NCBI GenBank assembly: GCA_019056805.1
Contig: DXJG01000007.1
Location: forward strand, 30,001 to 62,000
Reading direction: 5' to 3'
DNA: 32,000 nt
Origin: Candidatus Baldrarchaeota archaeon
Lineage (GTDB): Archaea > Asgardarchaeota > Baldrarchaeia > Baldrarchaeales > DXJG01
Under the pieces are notes generated by a model. That model was not told the DNA's origin, ran no database searches, and saw only the letters and a list, made by a program, of their open reading frames with translations. Shown piece after piece: positions 20,954 through 29,965 of the stretch. The translations under genes were made by a program, and so were the position numbers. Within the stretch, counting starts at the first letter, position 1, and every line of letters starts with the position of its first letter.

Positions 20954-23926
20954 CTAGGCTTCCGAGGTATTTTCTGAAATTTTTGATACTTCAGTTTCAT
21001 GTTTGGAATGTTGCGGGTATATTATGAGTAGTTCTTTATTTTCCTTTAACTTTAGCACCGTTTTGTATAATTTTATTCTCTCTGATTTTGGTAATTTTTC
21101 AAGTTCTTTTGCTAATTTTGGCATGTAAAAGAATTGGTCTTGATTTGAAATTTTTTGAATGATTTCCTTTAAGGAGCTAGGTATTTTTCTACTGTCTTCT
21201 ATCTTGTACATTGCCAAATTTTCTTTTCCAAAGATCTCATATATGATCTCCTCTGTGCCATTAAAAACTCCTAAGTCTCCTCTCCAATTATTAAAAACAT
21301 CTTTGAATTTTTCTTCGAATTTTTGTGTAATTTCTCTAATTATTTCTTTATTTTTAAGTTTCTCAGTTGAAATAGCAATTGTATATGTGTGCTCTCCAGA
21401 GGAACATGTTAAAAATCTTGGCTCTGGATCTCCATATGATATCTCATCAAGATATCCTACTTTACCGTTACTAAGTTCTGTGTAAAATGTTTGAACAGCT
21501 TGTATGAACCCAGCTATTAATTCAGGACTTCTTTCCTCGCCACCAAAAATTTTAACGTCTCTTACTGGAAGCCCGCTCCTTTTCTCAACTAATAATATCT
21601 CTTCTATCGATGAAATGGAAGATAAGTGTTCTATTTCATTAATCAATTTTGCGATTGATTTTTTTCTGTGCACAAAGTAGACAGATGAAGAAAAGAAGAA
21701 AAGAAATAAGAAAATAAGTTCTTTGAAATATTGTTTAACATTTTCTTTCACTTTTTCCAGTATAGGAGCTAAGGATAAGTATGGTGTTATTTCTATGGTT
21801 TTTTCCTCCGATTGTGAAGGTAAATATTCTCTACTTCCATTAAAGTACACTATTATTGTTAGGTTTCCAGCTGTTTGCATTTTAAAATTGTAAAAAGCTT
21901 TGCCCTCGTTATTAGTTACAAGCGTTTCATTCCACTCTCTAGTTGTACCGTTTAAGGAAGTGAATTTTAACATTAAAATTAATTCTTTACCTGGGACCCC
22001 TGTTCCGTTAATATCTGTTAGTGTTATTTCAATTCCTATGTTCTTCCCGACAGAGGCTTTTGAAGGAGCTTCAAGAATTATCCTTGTTGGAATAGGATAA
22101 ATAAGATTTAGGGTTATATTTACATGAGTTTCTTCATAATATTCTTTTATTACGTATATTGAAACGTTATACATTCCTTCTGTTAATCCATTTGTACCAA
22201 CTATGCCCTCGTAACAGTTTGTTATGTTATTATAAGTGAATTGAATTGTTCCTTTTATCCATTTTCCGTAAATATTTGCATCTGTTATATTCTCTCCGGT
22301 TATGCCATCGACACATCTAACTTTAATGGTTATATTTTCTCCTAAAAGATAATATTCGCTTAGATTTTCAACTATAATCTTTATGGTGTAGAAAACGGAA
22401 AATGTACTTATTCTATACCCTATTTCCGTTCCATTGTAGAATAGTATTGCTACTTTGTATTCTCCTTTTTCCACGTTTTGAGGTATCCATGTGAAATTAC
22501 TGCCTTCACTTATGTTCTTCGTTTCTTCATGAATTTTCACGTCAGTTACGTTGTATATTGCCATGGTTAAGTTTCCATTTGAAACTGTTACTGTTGATTT
22601 CCACTGTACAGAAAATTCTATTTTGTGGTTTATCGTAACATTTGCTGGGTGGTCTAAACTTTTTATATAGTTTATTCCTTGAAAAATTAGAAACCATGGA
22701 TCACTCATATTTACTGTTATTAAGTTTTCCTGTCTATCTATTACGTTATTTGTATTGTTTTGCAATGTCCAGTCTGATGGAACATGGAATTTCGTGCTAC
22801 AATTCAAATAGCCGCTGGGAAAAGTGTAAGTTGAGTTAACATACCATGTAACATTATCATAGTTTGTGTTAATGAAACAAGATGTGTGTAACAATTCTTC
22901 TTTTAAATGAGTAGTTTCACATGTGATATTAAATTTAAGTAACCAACTTGCCGTAACATTTAAAATTACGGGATCTTCAGTGATAAGATTCGTAAAAGTC
23001 CATGTTCCATTTTCATTAACTGATATATTATTTACTTTTAATTCATAGTCTTGAAAACTAGTTAATAACGGGGAAAGATGGACATATTGCAAAAAATAGT
23101 CTACATCTTCAGGTATGAAACTATTAGAATCAGAGTCGTAGTAGTATGCATATCCTTCATCAACTCCGTCGGTTGAAGCTGCTGGTGTAGAATCATTATA
23201 TGCCAGCCAACATACGTCTTCACTTGCCGTTAAGGCTCGAGCATATAGGTGCAAGAAGAACGTGTTATCGTAGGTTTTTGATGTGTCAAGTAAAAGGGGT
23301 GGATCGATTGTTATGTTTAATTGTAAGTATTGTGTTCCACTAATACTCATAATTGTGGTGTTGCTGATGAGCGTGGTATCTGGGTACGGTAGAATCTGCT
23401 CTTGAATTATTGTTCCTGTCGCATTCATTATAGCCCAGTCAATTGTTATTCCAGATATCACAGAGATGTTTAACTTTACTTCTAAACTCGTAAGATAACA
23501 TATGCGAGGAACTCGAAAAGACATTACTCTTGGATAATCTCCAATAGAAATATTTCCCAAGGGAAGAGGGTCTTCAGGGTGTTGCATTTCTATTTCTTTT
23601 GTTAGATTTTGCGGCTCTATATTTGTGAAGTTTAAAGCTATCTTTTCTGTGTTAAACCCGTGGGTTACAATATTTAGCGGGCTATAAAATGCGTCATTTT
23701 TTGCATCGAGAGACCTAACATGTGTTGTTTCATTATTTATCCAGTTTTTGATTTGTATTGCTGTTAGGTTTGAATGAATAATTCTATCACTAGACAAGGT
23801 AAAATTTGAAGTACATTGGGAAGGAAATGTTGAATTGGCTAAAACCTGTGGAGGGCTCATTATTGCGAAAAATATTAAAATTACTACAAGAAGTGTTAAA
23901 GTCTTCAGTTTTTCCACCAGAGTCAC
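20954..23926 (-). CDS. single-pass surface protein with a beta-rich/Ig-like ectodomain and a cytoplasmic longin-like domain
   Basis: N-terminal signal, sequon-rich ectodomain and TM LIFLFLFFFSSSVYFV followed by HRKK. The cytoplasmic ILLVEKRSGLPV...ELIAGFIQAVQTF...EISYG...WRGDLGVF pattern is typical of Asgard longin-like domains. Confidence 0.72.
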   Translation of the reverse strand: MTLVEKLKTLTLLVVILIFFAIMSPPQVLANSTFPSQCTSNFTLSSDRIIHSNLTAIQIKNWINNETTHVRSLDAKNDAFYSPLNIVTHGFNTEKIALNFTNIEPQNLTKEIEMQHPEDPLPLGNISIGDYPRVMSFRVPRICYLTSLEVKLNISVISGITIDWAIMNATGTIIQEQILPYPDTTLISNTTIMSISGTQYLQLNITIDPPLLLDTSKTYDNTFFLHLYARALTASEDVCWLAYNDSTPAASTDGVDEGYAYYYDSDSNSFIPEDVDYFLQYVHLSPLLTSFQDYELKVNNISVNENGTWTFTNLITEDPVILNVTASWLLKFNITCETTHLKEELLHTSCFINTNYDNVTWYVNSTYTFPSGYLNCSTKFHVPSDWTLQNNTNNVIDRQENLITVNMSDPWFLIFQGINYIKSLDHPANVTINHKIEFSVQWKSTVTVSNGNLTMAIYNVTDVKIHEETKNISEGSNFTWIPQNVEKGEYKVAILFYNGTEIGYRISTFSVFYTIKIIVENLSEYYLLGENITIKVRCVDGITGENITDANIYGKWIKGTIQFTYNNITNCYEGIVGTNGLTEGMYNVSIYVIKEYYEETHVNITLNLIYPIPTRIILEAPSKASVGKNIGIEITLTDINGTGVPGKELILMLKFTSLNGTTREWNETLVTNNEGKAFYNFKMQTAGNLTIIVYFNGSREYLPSQSEEKTIEITPYLSLAPILEKVKENVKQYFKELIFLFLFFFSSSVYFVHRKKSIAKLINEIEHLSSISSIEEILLVEKRSGLPVRDVKIFGGEERSPELIAGFIQAVQTFYTELSNGKVGYLDEISYGDPEPRFLTCSSGEHTYTIAISTEKLKNKEIIREITQKFEEKFKDVFNNWRGDLGVFNGTEEIIYEIFGKENLAMYKIEDSRKIPSSLKEIIQKISNQDQFFYMPKLAKELEKLPKSERIKLYKTVLKLKENKELLIIYPQHSKHETEVSKISENTSEA

Positions 23927-24615: not shown

Positions 24616-24792
24616 TATCCCTATTTTCCATCAAAATATACTGAATTTAGTTTTTCCTTAAAAATTGTGATCCGTTTATTGGACAATTTCGATTAATACA
24701 AACATAGTTACCTCAATTATTAAGTTTTAATTTCGAAGTTATTGATTAATCTTAATAAGGTTACAGTGTGTTATTATTTCTTGGTGTTTTTG

Positions 24793-25314
24793 ATGGAGAT
24801 CAAAATTGGTGAATTGTTTAAGGAAGCTATGGAACACCCTTCGAAAGAATCCATTATTATGATGTCTGAAGGACTTGAAAAATTTGTTTTAATGGTTATT
24901 AACGCTCTTGGAATTTTAGAAGAAAGAATTATCAACTTAGAAAATGAACTAAAATCTCTAAAGGAGACCATAGAATCAAAATTAAAGATAGAAAAAATGG
25001 AAATCCCACCAGCAAAACCTGTTCAAATTCCTGAATCAAAACTTCCTCCCTCACTTCCACCAGTTCCCTCCAAACCTACAGAAGAAATAGTTAAACCACC
25101 TACAAAGCCTCCTAAGGAGATAAGTGCTCCTAAGACTGTCGGGCCTGAAGAAAAAGATATTGAAGCCTTTAGAAAAGGATTGTTAAAACCTACACCGAAA
25201 ATTGAGGAAAAGGAGAAAAAACCTGTCTCTCTCAGAGATGCTCTTATGCAAGAATTAAAAAACTATTTTAATACTGCTATGAAAAAGGTTCGTAAAGAGG
25301 AAGTAGAGGAATGA
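24793..25314 (+). CDS. coiled-coil, proline-rich protein with WH2/beta-thymosin-like motif(s)
   Basis: Heptad ILEERIINLENELKSLKETIE, Pro-rich PPAKP...LPPSLPPVPSKP...KPPTKPPK, DIEAFRKGLLKPT and SLRDALMQELK. ATG 24793 has GGTG upstream (track start 24742). Confidence 0.6.
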   Translation: MEIKIGELFKEAMEHPSKESIIMMSEGLEKFVLMVINALGILEERIINLENELKSLKETIESKLKIEKMEIPPAKPVQIPESKLPPSLPPVPSKPTEEIVKPPTKPPKEISAPKTVGPEEKDIEAFRKGLLKPTPKIEEKEKKPVSLRDALMQELKNYFNTAMKKVRKEEVEE

Positions 25315-25319
25315 AAATT

Positions 25320-26237
25320 CTAGGATAATATTTTTAGTACTTTTTCTTTTATTTCTTGAAGTGATGATAGAAGTTTTCCTAGTTTAAAGTCTCTTTCTTT
25401 TAGTATTGAAAACATAGCTATTTCATCGCTTATGTTGTAAACTGCGATGTATTCTCTTTTTATATGCCACAGTGCTAAGTCTGCTGTATCAAAGGTTATG
25501 TATCCGCTTTTACGTAGTTGCGAGAACATTGTTCTCACCGTCTCGATAGGTTTTATTAGAGATTTTGCAGATACATATTTTAGTTTCTTCGGGTTAATGA
25601 GTTCTTTGCTTATTGCTGAAGCTATTTCTAAACCGTCTCCCTTGTTTAGAATGAAAGATGCTAAGGCTTTTTGTTTTTTATTGAATTTTGCTAAGATTTT
25701 ATGGATTTTCTCAGCCACTTCTTTTGCTTCTTTGGAAAGAACGCTATCTAAGAGTTTACAAACAACCGTTCTAGCTGTTCCCTCTGGTATAGATGTGGCC
25801 TCAACAACCACATTATGATTTCCAAATATTTTTCGTATTTCCTTTATGGAAATCTTTTTTATATCATATTTGCTGGCTAAAACGAATATTCTTGCATTCG
25901 GAGAATATTTTTTAAGATATTCTAGGGCTTTAAGATATTCTTGTTTTGCTTCATCGATTGTTTCTTTGTTAGAGGAGTCTACTACGAAGAAGAATGCACC
26001 TACGTTTGAAAATATTTTTCCTGACCATTGATCTGTGAAATATTTGTATATGAATTGTTTTTGTCCTCCTACATCAAAAGTTGTAACTTCTAATAAGCCT
26101 CTATACTTGTATGTTTTTGTACTTACAAATTCTGTTGGTTCTAAGTTCTTTACATCGTCCCAGTCTTTCCCTTCAAAAACATGTTTAACCAAAGATGTTT
26201 TTCCAGCTGCTCTTAACCCCATTATTAAAACTTTCAT
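25320..26237 (-). CDS. Rag/Gtr1-like small GTPase with C-terminal roadblock-like domain
   Basis: G1 GLRAAGKTS, G2 LEPT, G3 DVGGQ, G4 SKYD and G5 ATSI. Rag-like signatures are KVLIMG, YFTDQWSGKIFSNV and KYSPNARIFVL, plus a ~130-aa C-terminal alpha/beta domain. ATG 26237 is preferred; TTG 26246 is an alternative. Confidence 0.85.
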   Translation of the reverse strand: MKVLIMGLRAAGKTSLVKHVFEGKDWDDVKNLEPTEFVSTKTYKYRGLLEVTTFDVGGQKQFIYKYFTDQWSGKIFSNVGAFFFVVDSSNKETIDEAKQEYLKALEYLKKYSPNARIFVLASKYDIKKISIKEIRKIFGNHNVVVEATSIPEGTARTVVCKLLDSVLSKEAKEVAEKIHKILAKFNKKQKALASFILNKGDGLEIASAISKELINPKKLKYVSAKSLIKPIETVRTMFSQLRKSGYITFDTADLALWHIKREYIAVYNISDEIAMFSILKERDFKLGKLLSSLQEIKEKVLKILS

Positions 26238-26367
26238 TTTAAACAACCTTTAATGCTATTTCAAAACTTGAATTTAATTTATTTACTTCTAAATAGAGTA
26301 TATACTTTTCTATTAGAAACATATTATTACAATTAAAAATGTAGACTTCATTTGCAGAATTTCAACT

Positions 26368-27732
26368 TTAAGACGCAATAACGTAGGTAATTGAGATTAA
26401 ACAAAAGTTGATTAAAATATATAGAAGCAAGATTATTATTCCTCGTTTATTCACTAATTTTCCTTTAGAAGACCCTAAATATATTAGGATTCCAGAAATA
26501 AAGCTTAGAGTTGCATAGTGAATTTCTGAGGGATCAGGAAATTTTGGATAGAAAAGTTCTGGAATAAGTAGGGTTGGTAAATTCACTACTTTAAGCAATA
26601 GAAGTAGAAGTTCGATGAAAATCAAGATGAGACATGTTTTTGACAATTTTTCTCTAACCGTTATTAGCGAACATATGAGAAGTGAAGAAATTAGCATTAA
26701 TGTTAATGTGAAGAGATTATAGCCTACATAAATTAGATAGGTGATTATACAGAGAGATATTATAATTATGAGGTCTCTATATGGAAAACTTATTCTTTGA
26801 GTGATTCTTTTGGCTTTTCTACTGCCTAAAGTTCCCATGGAAATAAGAAATCCGGATAGTAAGGCTAAAAATATGTATATATAGAAACTTGAGGTTATAG
26901 TCGCAGGAAAAGGCTGCAGACCTTTAATGACTGTTAAATTAAATAATTTTGTAGCTATTGCTTGAGAAGAGGTTAAAGCAAGTTCAACTATAACTAATAC
27001 ATATACTAAATATAGTGGCCAGTCTTTTCTAGCGTATAAGTTGAAAAGAAGTGCTCCCCAAGTTGCATAAAATATTATGGTTGTAATTTCATACATAGCA
27101 AATGAAAATGTAAGTAACACCATACCTAGGATGAATATAAGTCCCCTTATTGGTAAAGGTGACTCAGAGATCTCTGAAATTTTCCTATCTACCTTTTCGA
27201 CTAAGGCTGGCCTTTTTAATGGTTGAAATAATTTAACGTGTTTCTTATCTTCTACTTTTGGGGACAATGGTTTTTTGAGAGATTTCAATTGTTTATAGAA
27301 GGATTTTAATATTTTTTGATAATTGCTCCAGTTTTCTTGCATTTTTGATATAACATTTGATAACTTTTCTTTTACATCCTCTGAATCTTCAATTTCATCT
27401 GCAATTATGGCCAAAGCGTATATTTCCTTACCTCCTCTAGCTTCTTCAGACTCTATATAAAATCTTTTAGCTAAACATTTGGTACCTGAAATCGAGAACA
27501 AAGTGTATTCTAGTTCCTCCCCCATTCCAATCGCGTTTTTTGCTATTTTCTCTAAAATTTCGGGTTTTCGTGCAAAAAGTCTACCAGGATATTTATTTAC
27601 TGGTATGAAACCTTTAACTTCATCAAACTTACATAGAACTAAACCCTTTAGGTTAACTTTTCTATCTTTTACAGATTCTTCCACCTTAAAATTACTTTCA
27701 CTGGACTTTTGATTCTCTTTATTATTTGTCAA
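26368..27732 (-). CDS. N-terminal longin/uDENN-like (FLCN/SMCR8-like) domain fused to a ~9-TM membrane domain
   Basis: LVLCKFDEVKGF...YP first strand and FYIESEEARGGKEIYALAII motif. The C-terminal ~260 aa are highly hydrophobic with an internal 4-TM repeat. Confidence 0.7.
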   Translation of the reverse strand: MTNNKENQKSSESNFKVEESVKDRKVNLKGLVLCKFDEVKGFIPVNKYPGRLFARKPEILEKIAKNAIGMGEELEYTLFSISGTKCLAKRFYIESEEARGGKEIYALAIIADEIEDSEDVKEKLSNVISKMQENWSNYQKILKSFYKQLKSLKKPLSPKVEDKKHVKLFQPLKRPALVEKVDRKISEISESPLPIRGLIFILGMVLLTFSFAMYEITTIIFYATWGALLFNLYARKDWPLYLVYVLVIVELALTSSQAIATKLFNLTVIKGLQPFPATITSSFYIYIFLALLSGFLISMGTLGSRKAKRITQRISFPYRDLIIIISLCIITYLIYVGYNLFTLTLMLISSLLICSLITVREKLSKTCLILIFIELLLLLLKVVNLPTLLIPELFYPKFPDPSEIHYATLSFISGILIYLGSSKGKLVNKRGIIILLLYILINFCLISITYVIAS

Positions 27733-27931: not shown

Positions 27932-28064
27932 TCATGCTATTGTAAGTGTATAAATTCCAAGAATAATAACTGCAATGCCTAGTAAACGTAACTTATCAAG
28001 TTTTTCTTTAAGAACTGTAGTTCCAAGAATTGTTGAGAATAGCGGGGAACTAGAGGCTATTATA
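27932..28064 (-). repeat. diverged direct repeat; partner at 31868-32000 (EamA paralog 3' ends)
   Basis: Ungapped manual alignment gives 102/133 nt identical, in the same orientation. Confidence 0.85.
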
Positions 28065-28822
28065 GTAGTTTTAGCCACACCTATCAGATTTATTGCAAAA
28101 AGGAAGAGTAGTGATCCAAGTCCTATCGCAAAAATACCCCCGATCGAGAGAACGAGTAGGGTCTTTTTATCCATGCTTTTGAGCTCCTTTTTCCGTCTCT
28201 CTTTAGATAATATTAGTAGCCATACGATTATGTTAAGAATTAATAGCCTTACAAGATTTAAGAAGACGGGAGATACACTTAGGAGAACAATTTTAAGAAT
28301 TGTCATACTTATACCCCAAGAAAGGGAAGCCATTATTGCAGCAATTAAACCTCTAACCATGTGTTTACTCTGACTGTTTTCAGCTTTGAGAAACAATAAA
28401 AATACCCCTAGTACAACAAGTATAGCGCTTATGAAGGTCCATATGTTGATAGTTTCTTGTAAGAAGAAGTATGCGAAAATTGCGACAAAAAGGGAATATG
28501 TATAAGAAACTGGATGTCCTATTGCTACACCAGCATCTCTAATAGCCACAAGAAATAAGGAATCGCCAAGAAGAATGCCGAAAGAAACATCTACTACTAT
28601 AAGTAAGAAAAGCCATACGGATAAATTATGAATTTGATATATTTCGCCCATAATTGCTACTGCGGCAAGCATAAAAATTAGGCTTGGAATTGTTCTAATG
28701 CCATTTGCAACTATTACATCTGAGTTTTCTGTTTTTAACCCAACTTTATAAAGTACTGTTGCTAAAGACCACGAGATCGCTGTTAATAAACTTAACACAA
28801 TCCCAACTTCTACTGTATGCAA
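27932..28822 (-). CDS. EamA/DMT family transporter
   Basis: Ten hydrophobic segments in two repeats, with AISWSLATVLYK, FAYFFLQETI, ASLSWGISMTILK and SPLFSTILGTTVLKEKL motifs. Confidence 0.92.
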   Translation of the reverse strand: MHTVEVGIVLSLLTAISWSLATVLYKVGLKTENSDVIVANGIRTIPSLIFMLAAVAIMGEIYQIHNLSVWLFLLIVVDVSFGILLGDSLFLVAIRDAGVAIGHPVSYTYSLFVAIFAYFFLQETINIWTFISAILVVLGVFLLFLKAENSQSKHMVRGLIAAIMASLSWGISMTILKIVLLSVSPVFLNLVRLLILNIIVWLLILSKERRKKELKSMDKKTLLVLSIGGIFAIGLGSLLFLFAINLIGVAKTTIIASSSPLFSTILGTTVLKEKLDKLRLLGIAVIILGIYTLTIA

Positions 28823-29320: not shown

Positions 29321-29965
29321 GTGCTACCATTAGAATACATTGTTAAGGTTGTAATTATTACCTCCTCTGGTGCTTTATCTCCTGGTCCCCTTACAGCTTC
29401 AACCATCGCTGCTGGATCTAGTGAAGGTTGGAAAAATGGATTTAAAATTAGTGTGGGACATATGATCGTAGAAATGCCTCTAGTGTTTTTAATAGCTTTT
29501 GGCATCGCAACCCTGCTTGCAACACCTGTTATTGAAAGAGTGATAAGTTTTGCCGGGGGCAGTCTTCTAATATTACTAGGTGCTTTTATGCTGAAAGACG
29601 TATTTAAAAAAGATTTTGGCGACGAAAATGTTTCTAGTAATGCTGTGCGTTCTCCCCTTATGATTGGAATTTTACTTTCTCTTTTTAATCCATATTTTTT
29701 AGTTTGGTGGATACTTGTAGGTGGAGCTCTCGTCATTGAAGCTATACTTCTTGCAGGTCTTATAGGTGTTGGTTTAATGTTTATTGCGCATATTTGGATG
29801 GACTATGCTTGGTTAATGCTATTATCTGAACTTTCTAAGAAGGGAAAACAGATTCTTAAAACAAAGGGATATAAGATATTATTAGCTGGTATTTCGCTTG
29901 CTTTGATATTTTTTGGAATAGATTTTATCTCTTTATCAATATTTGGTTCAGGCATCCTTCTATAG
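29321..29965 (+). CDS. LysE/RhtB family translocator
   Basis: SGALSPGPLTASTI, GFKISVGHMIVE, GILLSLFNPYFLVWW and HIWMDYAW motifs. Confidence 0.9.
   Translation: MLPLEYIVKVVIITSSGALSPGPLTASTIAAGSSEGWKNGFKISVGHMIVEMPLVFLIAFGIATLLATPVIERVISFAGGSLLILLGAFMLKDVFKKDFGDENVSSNAVRSPLMIGILLSLFNPYFLVWWILVGGALVIEAILLAGLIGVGLMFIAHIWMDYAWLMLLSELSKKGKQILKTKGYKILLAGISLALIFFGIDFISLSIFGSGILL

Follow-up and report, generated by a model that had tools for sequence, protein, structure and literature searches.

How a longin domain resembling those of the eukaryotic Rag GTPase-activating proteins (Rag GAPs) may be held at a membrane is the question raised by one gene in a 32,000-nucleotide stretch of an Asgard archaeal genome (Candidatus Baldrarchaeota archaeon, contig DXJG01000007.1, positions 30,001 to 62,000; hereafter the window). 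The gene (26368-27732, minus strand) encodes a protein of 454 amino acids (aa), here called the longin-TM protein, in which a longin domain is followed by a linker and by a membrane domain of nine predicted transmembrane (TM) helices. Eukaryotic proteins of the FLCN/NPRL2 type are soluble and are brought to membranes by partner proteins. An initial annotation of the part encoding aa 192-454 (26368-27159) had read the membrane domain as an internal duplication of four helices plus one extra helix, with a glutamate within the membrane in each unit, and had suggested a transporter-like or sensor-like domain fused to an FLCN-like longin.

Internal duplication in the membrane domain

Three pairs of similar strings are present in the translation of the gene, namely PLPIRGLIFI (aa 192-201) and SFPYRDLIII (aa 315-324), VLVIVELAL (aa 245-253) and ILIFIELLL (aa 369-377), and QPFP...LALLSGFLISMG and PKFP...LSFISGILIYLG. 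Alignment of aa 186-310 with aa 311-454 gave a Smith-Waterman score of 72, as compared with 38 +/- 6.5 for shuffled sequences (z 5.2). This score was reached by 2 of 2000 whole shuffles and by 1 of 2000 local-window shuffles, and the reversed sequence scored 38. With hhalign, the profile of the first unit (unit 1) matched that of the second unit (unit 2) combined with single-unit relatives, described below, with a probability of 97.3% (E 2.1e-11, 118 columns, score 68.8), and a HMMER model built from unit 2 and the single-unit relatives picked up unit 1 in the genome at E 1.2e-5. In each unit, a glutamate (E250 and E374, respectively) lies in the middle of a helix, and the two residues align with each other. 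The duplication with its extra helix and the paired glutamates, as the initial annotation had described them, are thus borne out.

That the repeat is an artefact, with two stretches of hydrophobic helices aligning through shared composition alone, is hardly credible: the units are only ~19% identical and membrane helices are alike in composition, but besides the shuffles given above, profiles reversed or with shuffled columns (n=22) scored at most 16.4, unrelated membrane profiles scored no more than 20 (archaeal Yip1 20.0 and 17.7, the neighbouring EamA 15.2), and unit 1 by itself matched single-unit proteins of other lineages (hhalign E 1.4e-8). The repeat is therefore not an effect of composition. 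At the level of the protein sequence, aa 192-303 and 317-421 are confirmed as homologous four-helix units. No direct repeats were detected in the DNA within 26368-27159, from which it can be concluded that the duplication is old.

Topology and conservation

An AlphaFold2 model of the full-length protein (16-row alignment, mean pLDDT, the predicted local distance difference test score, 64.9) contained nine helices in the membrane domain, at aa 193-213, 216-235, 238-264, 281-301, 318-335, 340-358, 361-383, 401-421 and 429-453. The longin domain was modelled with a confidence of ~80, unit 1 with 52-67 and unit 2 with 68-87, and a model of the membrane domain alone had a mean pLDDT of 42. Hydropathy was in agreement for most helices; TM2 and TM8 are less hydrophobic, and they are homologous to TM6 and TM4, respectively, which score as membrane helices. 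When the N-terminus was taken as inside, 17 lysines and arginines (K+R) were counted in the loops of the cytoplasmic side and 4 in the outside loops, and no signal peptide was found in the longin-TM protein. The longin domain is therefore predicted to lie inside the cell; a position outside it would have spoken against the initial annotation. From the charge distribution, the C-terminus is predicted to lie outside. Since each unit has four helices, units 1 and 2 share the same orientation, i.e. the repeat is parallel and not inverted. No ectodomain is present, and the loops on the outside are short, with 2, 16, 4 and 17 residues. An N-x-S/T sequon (26935-26943, aa 264-266, F-N-L of F-N-L-T) in the outside loop predicted between TM3 and TM4 occurs in six of the eight close orthologues and fits an extracellular position of this loop.

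Conservation was expressed as mean pairwise identity among seven orthologues of 66-80% identity (Table 1). The part of the protein between the longin domain and TM1 is less conserved than the domains on either side (58% vs 82%), varies in length among relatives and is of low complexity. In the model, aa 153-193 had a pLDDT below 50 and appeared as disordered. A disordered, poorly conserved linker of variable length can be taken as a tether rather than as a rigid relay of signals. Among the helices, the ninth is the least conserved, with 8 of its 25 positions invariant.

Some residues recur in all forms of the unit, including those of the single-unit relatives. An arginine stands at the cytoplasmic start of every unit (R196 and R319; in single-unit forms it belongs to an RN motif). 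The fourth helix (TM4 and TM8) has an S-G motif in all three kinds of unit, and a glycine at its cytoplasmic end is likewise shared. Two residues invariant in both single- and double-unit forms, R319 and G420, are located at predicted cytoplasmic ends of helices. As for the glutamates, E374 is retained in the close family but not in an orthologue of 28% identity, and single-unit forms carry hydrophobic residues at the positions of both E250 and E374.

The loop that follows the fourth helix differs in charge between the two forms. In single-unit proteins, the cytoplasmic loop that connects helices four and five is acidic, with an invariant G-L-D-R/N-G-x-x-x-D-K/R-x-S motif. The loop at the same position in the double-unit family (26440-26469, aa 422-431) is basic, with the sequence S-K-G-K-x-V-N-K-R-G. 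The charge is thus inverted at what is probably a docking surface.

Table 1. Features of the longin-TM gene and of its conserved neighbours in the window, with mean pairwise identity of the protein segments.
Feature	Position	Strand	Residues (aa)	Mean pairwise identity	Remarks
Whole longin-TM gene	26368..27732	-	454 in total		Longin domain, linker, 9-TM domain; TTG start as listed; stop codon 26368-26370
Longin domain, NPRL2/FLCN type	27283..27654	-	27-150	82%	ARGG motif with invariant R99 (27436-27438)
Lys-rich linker, longin domain to TM1	27160..27282	-	151-191	58%	
Repeat unit 1 (TM1-TM4)	26824..27159	-	192-303	70%	More diverged copy; mid-membrane E250 (26983-26985)
Basic cytoplasmic loop, unit 1 to unit 2	26785..26823	-	304-316	27%	5 K+R; lowest identity in the protein
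Repeat unit 2 (TM5-TM8)	26470..26784	-	317-421	82%	Ancestral-like copy; E374 (26611-26613); 61% invariant columns; identity equal to longin domain
Basic loop and ninth helix	26371..26469	-	422-454	61%	C-terminus predicted outside the cell
Gtr1/RagA-like GTPase with C-terminal domain	25320..26246	-			Presumed partner; 121 bp downstream of the longin-TM gene, same strand; Pfam PF04670, E 3.7e-27
190-aa gene	24742..25314	+	190 in total		Tail-to-tail with the GTPase gene; completes the conserved three-gene cassette

Single-unit relatives and origin of the duplication

An exhaustive HMMER search of 1.84 billion representatives retrieved 17 relatives. Besides the orthologues of 66-80% identity, one of which comes from a metagenome-assembled genome (MAG) of Baldrarchaeia, a more distant one (P0011, 454 aa, 28% identity) shares the double architecture of the window protein. 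Three others (P0012, P0013 and P0015, 311-327 aa), from MAGs of Helarchaeota, Lokiarchaeota and Promethearchaeota, share the longin domain, which is followed by one four-helix unit and one further helix. Five further single-unit genes were present in Asgard species genomes; single-unit proteins span 307-345 aa overall.

The single-unit forms indicate how the nine helices arose. Unit 1 matches the single-unit proteins on its own, as given above, and the 4+4+1 form is therefore derived from the 4+1 form. Unit 2 together with helix 9 matched the single-unit relatives at E 2.5e-15 over 132 columns, including the extra helix; it follows that the ninth helix corresponds to the old fifth helix and that the duplication took in only helices 1-4. 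In a tree of the units, a branch with support 76/84 separated the unit-1 copies of both double-unit lineages from the unit-2 copies, which grouped with the single-unit forms. As far as the sequences go, a single duplication before the split of the double-unit lineages is likely, with unit 1 as the faster-evolving copy.

Distribution of the membrane module

We found no known family for the membrane domain. A Pfam search gave no family for the unit of the window and only scattered matches for its relatives, at E 0.012 or weaker. No credible match was obtained in NCBIfam, where one single-unit relative matched MPN565 with 15.5 bits (cut-off 130). A profile search of PDB sequences with the membrane domain gave no match, and an ESM Atlas feature search gave no usable one. 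Searches with structure models retrieved longin matches only, both for the Atlas model of the single-unit protein P0013 and for the full-length model (VIA wide, Atlas and Foldseek PDB); with the latter, the few rows that reached the membrane part (CorA, Eag1) had probabilities of at most 0.16 and a root-mean-square deviation of ~28 Å.

At strong E-values, 6 of the 400 Asgard species genomes contained the membrane module. A dedicated search for stand-alone modules gave three short matches, all resembling fragments of longin-fused proteins (contigs of 1-2.4 kb), and a second search by word index added nothing. Within the limits of these searches, the module was fused to this type of longin in every case found, and it appears to be an undescribed module seen only in Asgard genomes. 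The longin-TM gene was not found in three genomes of the same genus (G006-G008). In one of them, G007, the Rag-like gene starts at the end of a contig, and the gene upstream of it may be unassembled.

The longin domain

According to structure searches, the longin fold of the model is closest to NPRL2 and FLCN, i.e. to longins of Rag GAPs. The description of the protein as an FLCN-like longin on a TM domain is in this respect upheld by the predicted fold. The top structural match was a longin domain of Lokiarchaeota (8yqg), which is a dimer. At the sequence level, the link to FLCN and NPRL2 appears weak: the Pfam family Folliculin (PF11704) scored 13.9 bits, below its gathering score of 23.3 (E 0.049), and a profile search of PDB sequences with the longin retrieved neither FLCN nor NPRL2. 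R99, in an ARGG turn, is invariant in 16 homologues. For this type of longin, a GP motif before the second strand has been published (PMC12290439). The window protein and its homologues contain an invariant G41 and a nearly invariant P44 with two residues between them (G-F/Y-I/V-P), and a strict GP is absent. No DENN domain or NPRL2-specific C-terminal domain is present; the nine membrane helices occupy this place instead.

Asgard longins of the FLCN/SMCR8 type and NPRL2-like ones have been described before, the latter also in fusion with signalling domains (PMC12290439; bioRxiv 10.1101/2020.10.19.343400). The word 'transmembrane' does not occur in PMC12290439, and no membrane-spanning form is described in the passages found in bioRxiv 10.1101/2020.10.19.343400.

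The same longin subtype was also observed in other contexts (relatives P0022, P0023, P0019 and P0017): in proteins of ~1100 aa it is joined to HerA/DUF87-type P-loop ATPase domains, and in a 226-aa protein to a ubiquitin-like domain. The subtype is a shuffled module. No second copy of it was found in the genome of the window (assembly of 1.9 Mb, 91% complete), and the cytoplasmic tail of a nearby 990-aa protein (20954-23926) had no significant BLASTP similarity to the longin.

Linkage to a Rag-like GTPase

The gene of the Rag-like GTPase lies next to the longin-TM gene in the window, and this linkage recurs elsewhere. On orthologous contigs, three genes (longin-TM, Rag-like and a small convergent one) followed one another in the same order, with different flanks. 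Around the orthologue of 28% identity, the three genes of this cassette were present in rearranged order. Strong matches to a profile of the Rag-like C-terminal domain were found in only 8 of the 400 Asgard species genomes, namely the six that possess the membrane module, G007, in which the gene starts at the contig end, and G125. Each of the six module genomes has a Rag-like copy no more than 6 kb away from the longin-TM gene, and metagenomic contigs show the linkage as well. The copy was adjacent in two of the genomes (G000 and G126) and 2.4-5.5 kb away in four (G122, G123, G124 and G127). As these six genomes represent four families, the linkage does not reflect shared ancestry only. A predicted complex of the longin domain with the Rag-like GTPase scored 0.22 (mark 0.32); this gives no verdict and was not used as evidence.

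Several further features of the neighbourhood were noted. The small gene (173-218 aa, no Pfam family) is always positioned tail-to-tail with the Rag-like gene, even beside the orthologue of 28% identity; its copies are 24742-25314 (plus strand) in the window, L009:1110-1766, L010:7417-7938, L011:7393-7914 and L012:6735-7256. In the single-unit genome G127 (C3:347993-354353), the rare subfamily is represented by two Rag-like paralogues, one at 3.0 kb and the other at 5.5 kb from the longin-TM gene. In four genomes from two families (L002:2070-2855, L003:654-1415, L004:2717-3406 and L005:2728-3414), the neighbour of the single-unit longin-TM gene is a conserved gene with the motif ...GMPGI.(L/M)VG(K/R)(L/M)A... 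at the start of its product. Genes of EamA, LysE and NUDIX proteins recur near the cassette in close relatives (27932-28822 and 29321-29965 in the window; L010-L012), shuffled in order and side, and are absent beside the single-unit forms. A scan for bacterial-type promoters and terminators gave results at chance level.

Proposed role of the membrane domain

We consider it fairly probable that the nine-helix domain, derived from a duplicated 4+1 module, is a dedicated membrane platform which holds the longin beside a Rag-like partner. According to this model, the first four helices of an older five-helix module were duplicated in tandem, giving rise to the C-terminal nine-helix domain of 263 residues, and the five-helix form survives in Loki-, Hel- and Promethearchaeota on the shared longin domain. 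Unit 2 and helix 9 would have retained the ancestral sequence, with unit 1 evolving faster. At the inner face of the cell membrane, the flexible tether would hold the NPRL2/FLCN-type longin, which could there act on, or scaffold, the Rag-like GTPase encoded beside the longin-TM gene. The membrane platform would thereby replace the lipid anchors and recruiting transporters of eukaryotes.

A number of observations weigh against this model. Unit 2 is conserved as much as the longin domain (82%), and invariant residues, many of them polar, span the full depth of TM6 (14 of 19 positions) and TM7 (15 of 23). Such constraint exceeds the need of a simple anchor. The mid-membrane E250 in TM3 is invariant in both double-unit lineages, which share just 28% identity, and an outside-loop motif P-x-F-P-(D/E) is conserved in both single- and double-unit forms. 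Furthermore, branches in the tree of the units are long and support is no more than moderate, and the best match to the GTPase of the window in the three f15 genomes is not the nearby Rag-like copy, which ranks second. The strong conservation of unit 2 and the buried glutamates show the membrane domain to be more than a greasy anchor. It may contact the GTPase, itself or another membrane protein in a specific manner.

An alternative is that the duplicated domain acts as a transceptor or sensor, which would bind or carry a solute, ion, proton or lipid via the buried glutamates and gate the Rag-like GTPase through the longin. The functions of SLC38A9 or PQLC2 and those of FLCN or C9orf72-SMCR8 would then be combined in one polypeptide. 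The strong conservation of unit 2 and of the outer-loop motif speaks for such a role, as do the invariant polar residues deep in the helices (E250, E374, N231, S349/S350 and N442), the mutual alignment of E250 and E374, the invariance of E250 across the two double-unit lineages and the recurrence of genes for amino-acid exporters (LysE, EamA) around the cassette of close relatives. However, the exporter genes are shuffled in position and absent beside single-unit forms, the single-unit relatives have hydrophobic residues in place of both glutamates, and the orthologue of 28% identity lacks E374. In addition, the flexible, variable, low-complexity linker does not look like a rigid coupling element, there is no ectodomain on the short outside loops, the repeats are parallel, and searches of Pfam, NCBIfam, PDB sequences and the Atlas gave no relationship to transporter or receptor families. 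We therefore found no positive evidence for the transporter-like or sensor-like domain of the initial annotation, and a transceptor of this general kind appears unlikely, if still to be reckoned with. The specific form of it, a single-chain archaeal transceptor in which a membrane or solute signal would directly switch the longin on the adjacent Rag-like GTPase via the buried glutamates, is improbable. If true, it would represent a one-polypeptide forerunner of the eukaryotic arrangement of lysosomal amino-acid transporter, longin GAP and Rag GTPase.

It could also be speculated that the single-unit proteins are homodimers formed via their membrane domains, and that their interface was fused into a single chain by the duplication. 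The known Rag-GAP longins work in pairs (FLCN-FNIP, NPRL2-NPRL3, C9orf72-SMCR8), and a single-unit dimer would pair two longins in the same way, with the double form keeping one longin per pseudo-dimer. The units indeed share their orientation and have an even number of helices each, all three kinds of unit have retained the small-residue S-G motif (TM4 and TM8), and the solved Lokiarchaeota longin that gave the top structural match is a dimer. However, four of five helices were duplicated, so that no whole-gene fusion took place, and the double form is left with a single longin, as opposed to the longin pairs of known Rag GAPs. We regard such an internalised dimer as quite improbable, and a membrane platform for the longin as the reading to be preferred.

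Comparison with known systems

NPRL2 and folliculin are the catalytic subunits of eukaryotic Rag GAPs. The window protein resembles NPRL2 (of GATOR1) and FLCN in its longin fold, has an arginine in an invariant ARGG turn, and is linked to a gene of a Gtr1/RagA-like GTPase. It differs from them in that a 9-TM domain stands in place of the DENN or NPRL2-specific C-terminal domain, in its sub-threshold Folliculin score, and in the G41-x-x-P44 arrangement in place of GP.

The lysosomal amino-acid transporters SLC38A9 and PQLC2 serve to recruit or regulate the machinery of Rag/FLCN and C9orf72-SMCR8-WDR41. The likeness of the window protein to them is in role only, that of a polytopic protein beside a longin GAP and a Rag-type GTPase, although PQLC2 is also internally repeated. 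No sequence similarity to them was detected, and the parallel 4+4+1 arrangement differs both from the 3+1+3 of PQ-loop proteins and from the 11 TM helices of SLC38A9. Moreover, the window protein has the membrane part and the longin in one polypeptide.

With LAMTOR1 and Ego1, the anchors of Ragulator and the EGO complex, the window protein shares the proposed job of fixing Rag-regulating roadblock/longin machinery to a membrane. These anchors are lipid-anchored and extended, with neither membrane helices nor a longin, whereas the anchor in the window is an integral bundle of nine helices. The outline of the single-unit forms, i.e. a cytoplasmic N-terminal domain followed by five helices with short loops, also resembles that of the Yip1 family (PF04893), members of which interact with Rabs in eukaryotes. 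Identity with Yip1 was rejected: hhalign comparisons with archaeal Yip1 gave probabilities of 1.8% and 0.6%, and separate Yip1 genes are present in the genome.

Finally, Asgard longins of the FLCN/NPRL2 type and Rag-like GTPases have already been published, which raises the question of how they meet the membrane. Asgard small GTPases lack the lipid anchors of eukaryotic ones, and the Asgard proteins tested in one study did not reach membranes in human cells (PMC10933270). In the case described here, the longin itself is predicted from the models to be an integral membrane protein. What is new is an Asgard longin of the FLCN/NPRL2 type with an undescribed membrane module, which has been duplicated in the lineage of the window. 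The duplication alone is a modest structural point, and its value lies in defining the module and its ancestral form. Since the module was always fused to this longin and always found near one rare subfamily of Rag-like GTPases, the two genes offer a cloneable pair for asking whether Rag regulation at membranes is older than eukaryotes, and single- and double-unit forms provide a natural comparison for the contribution of the membrane domain.

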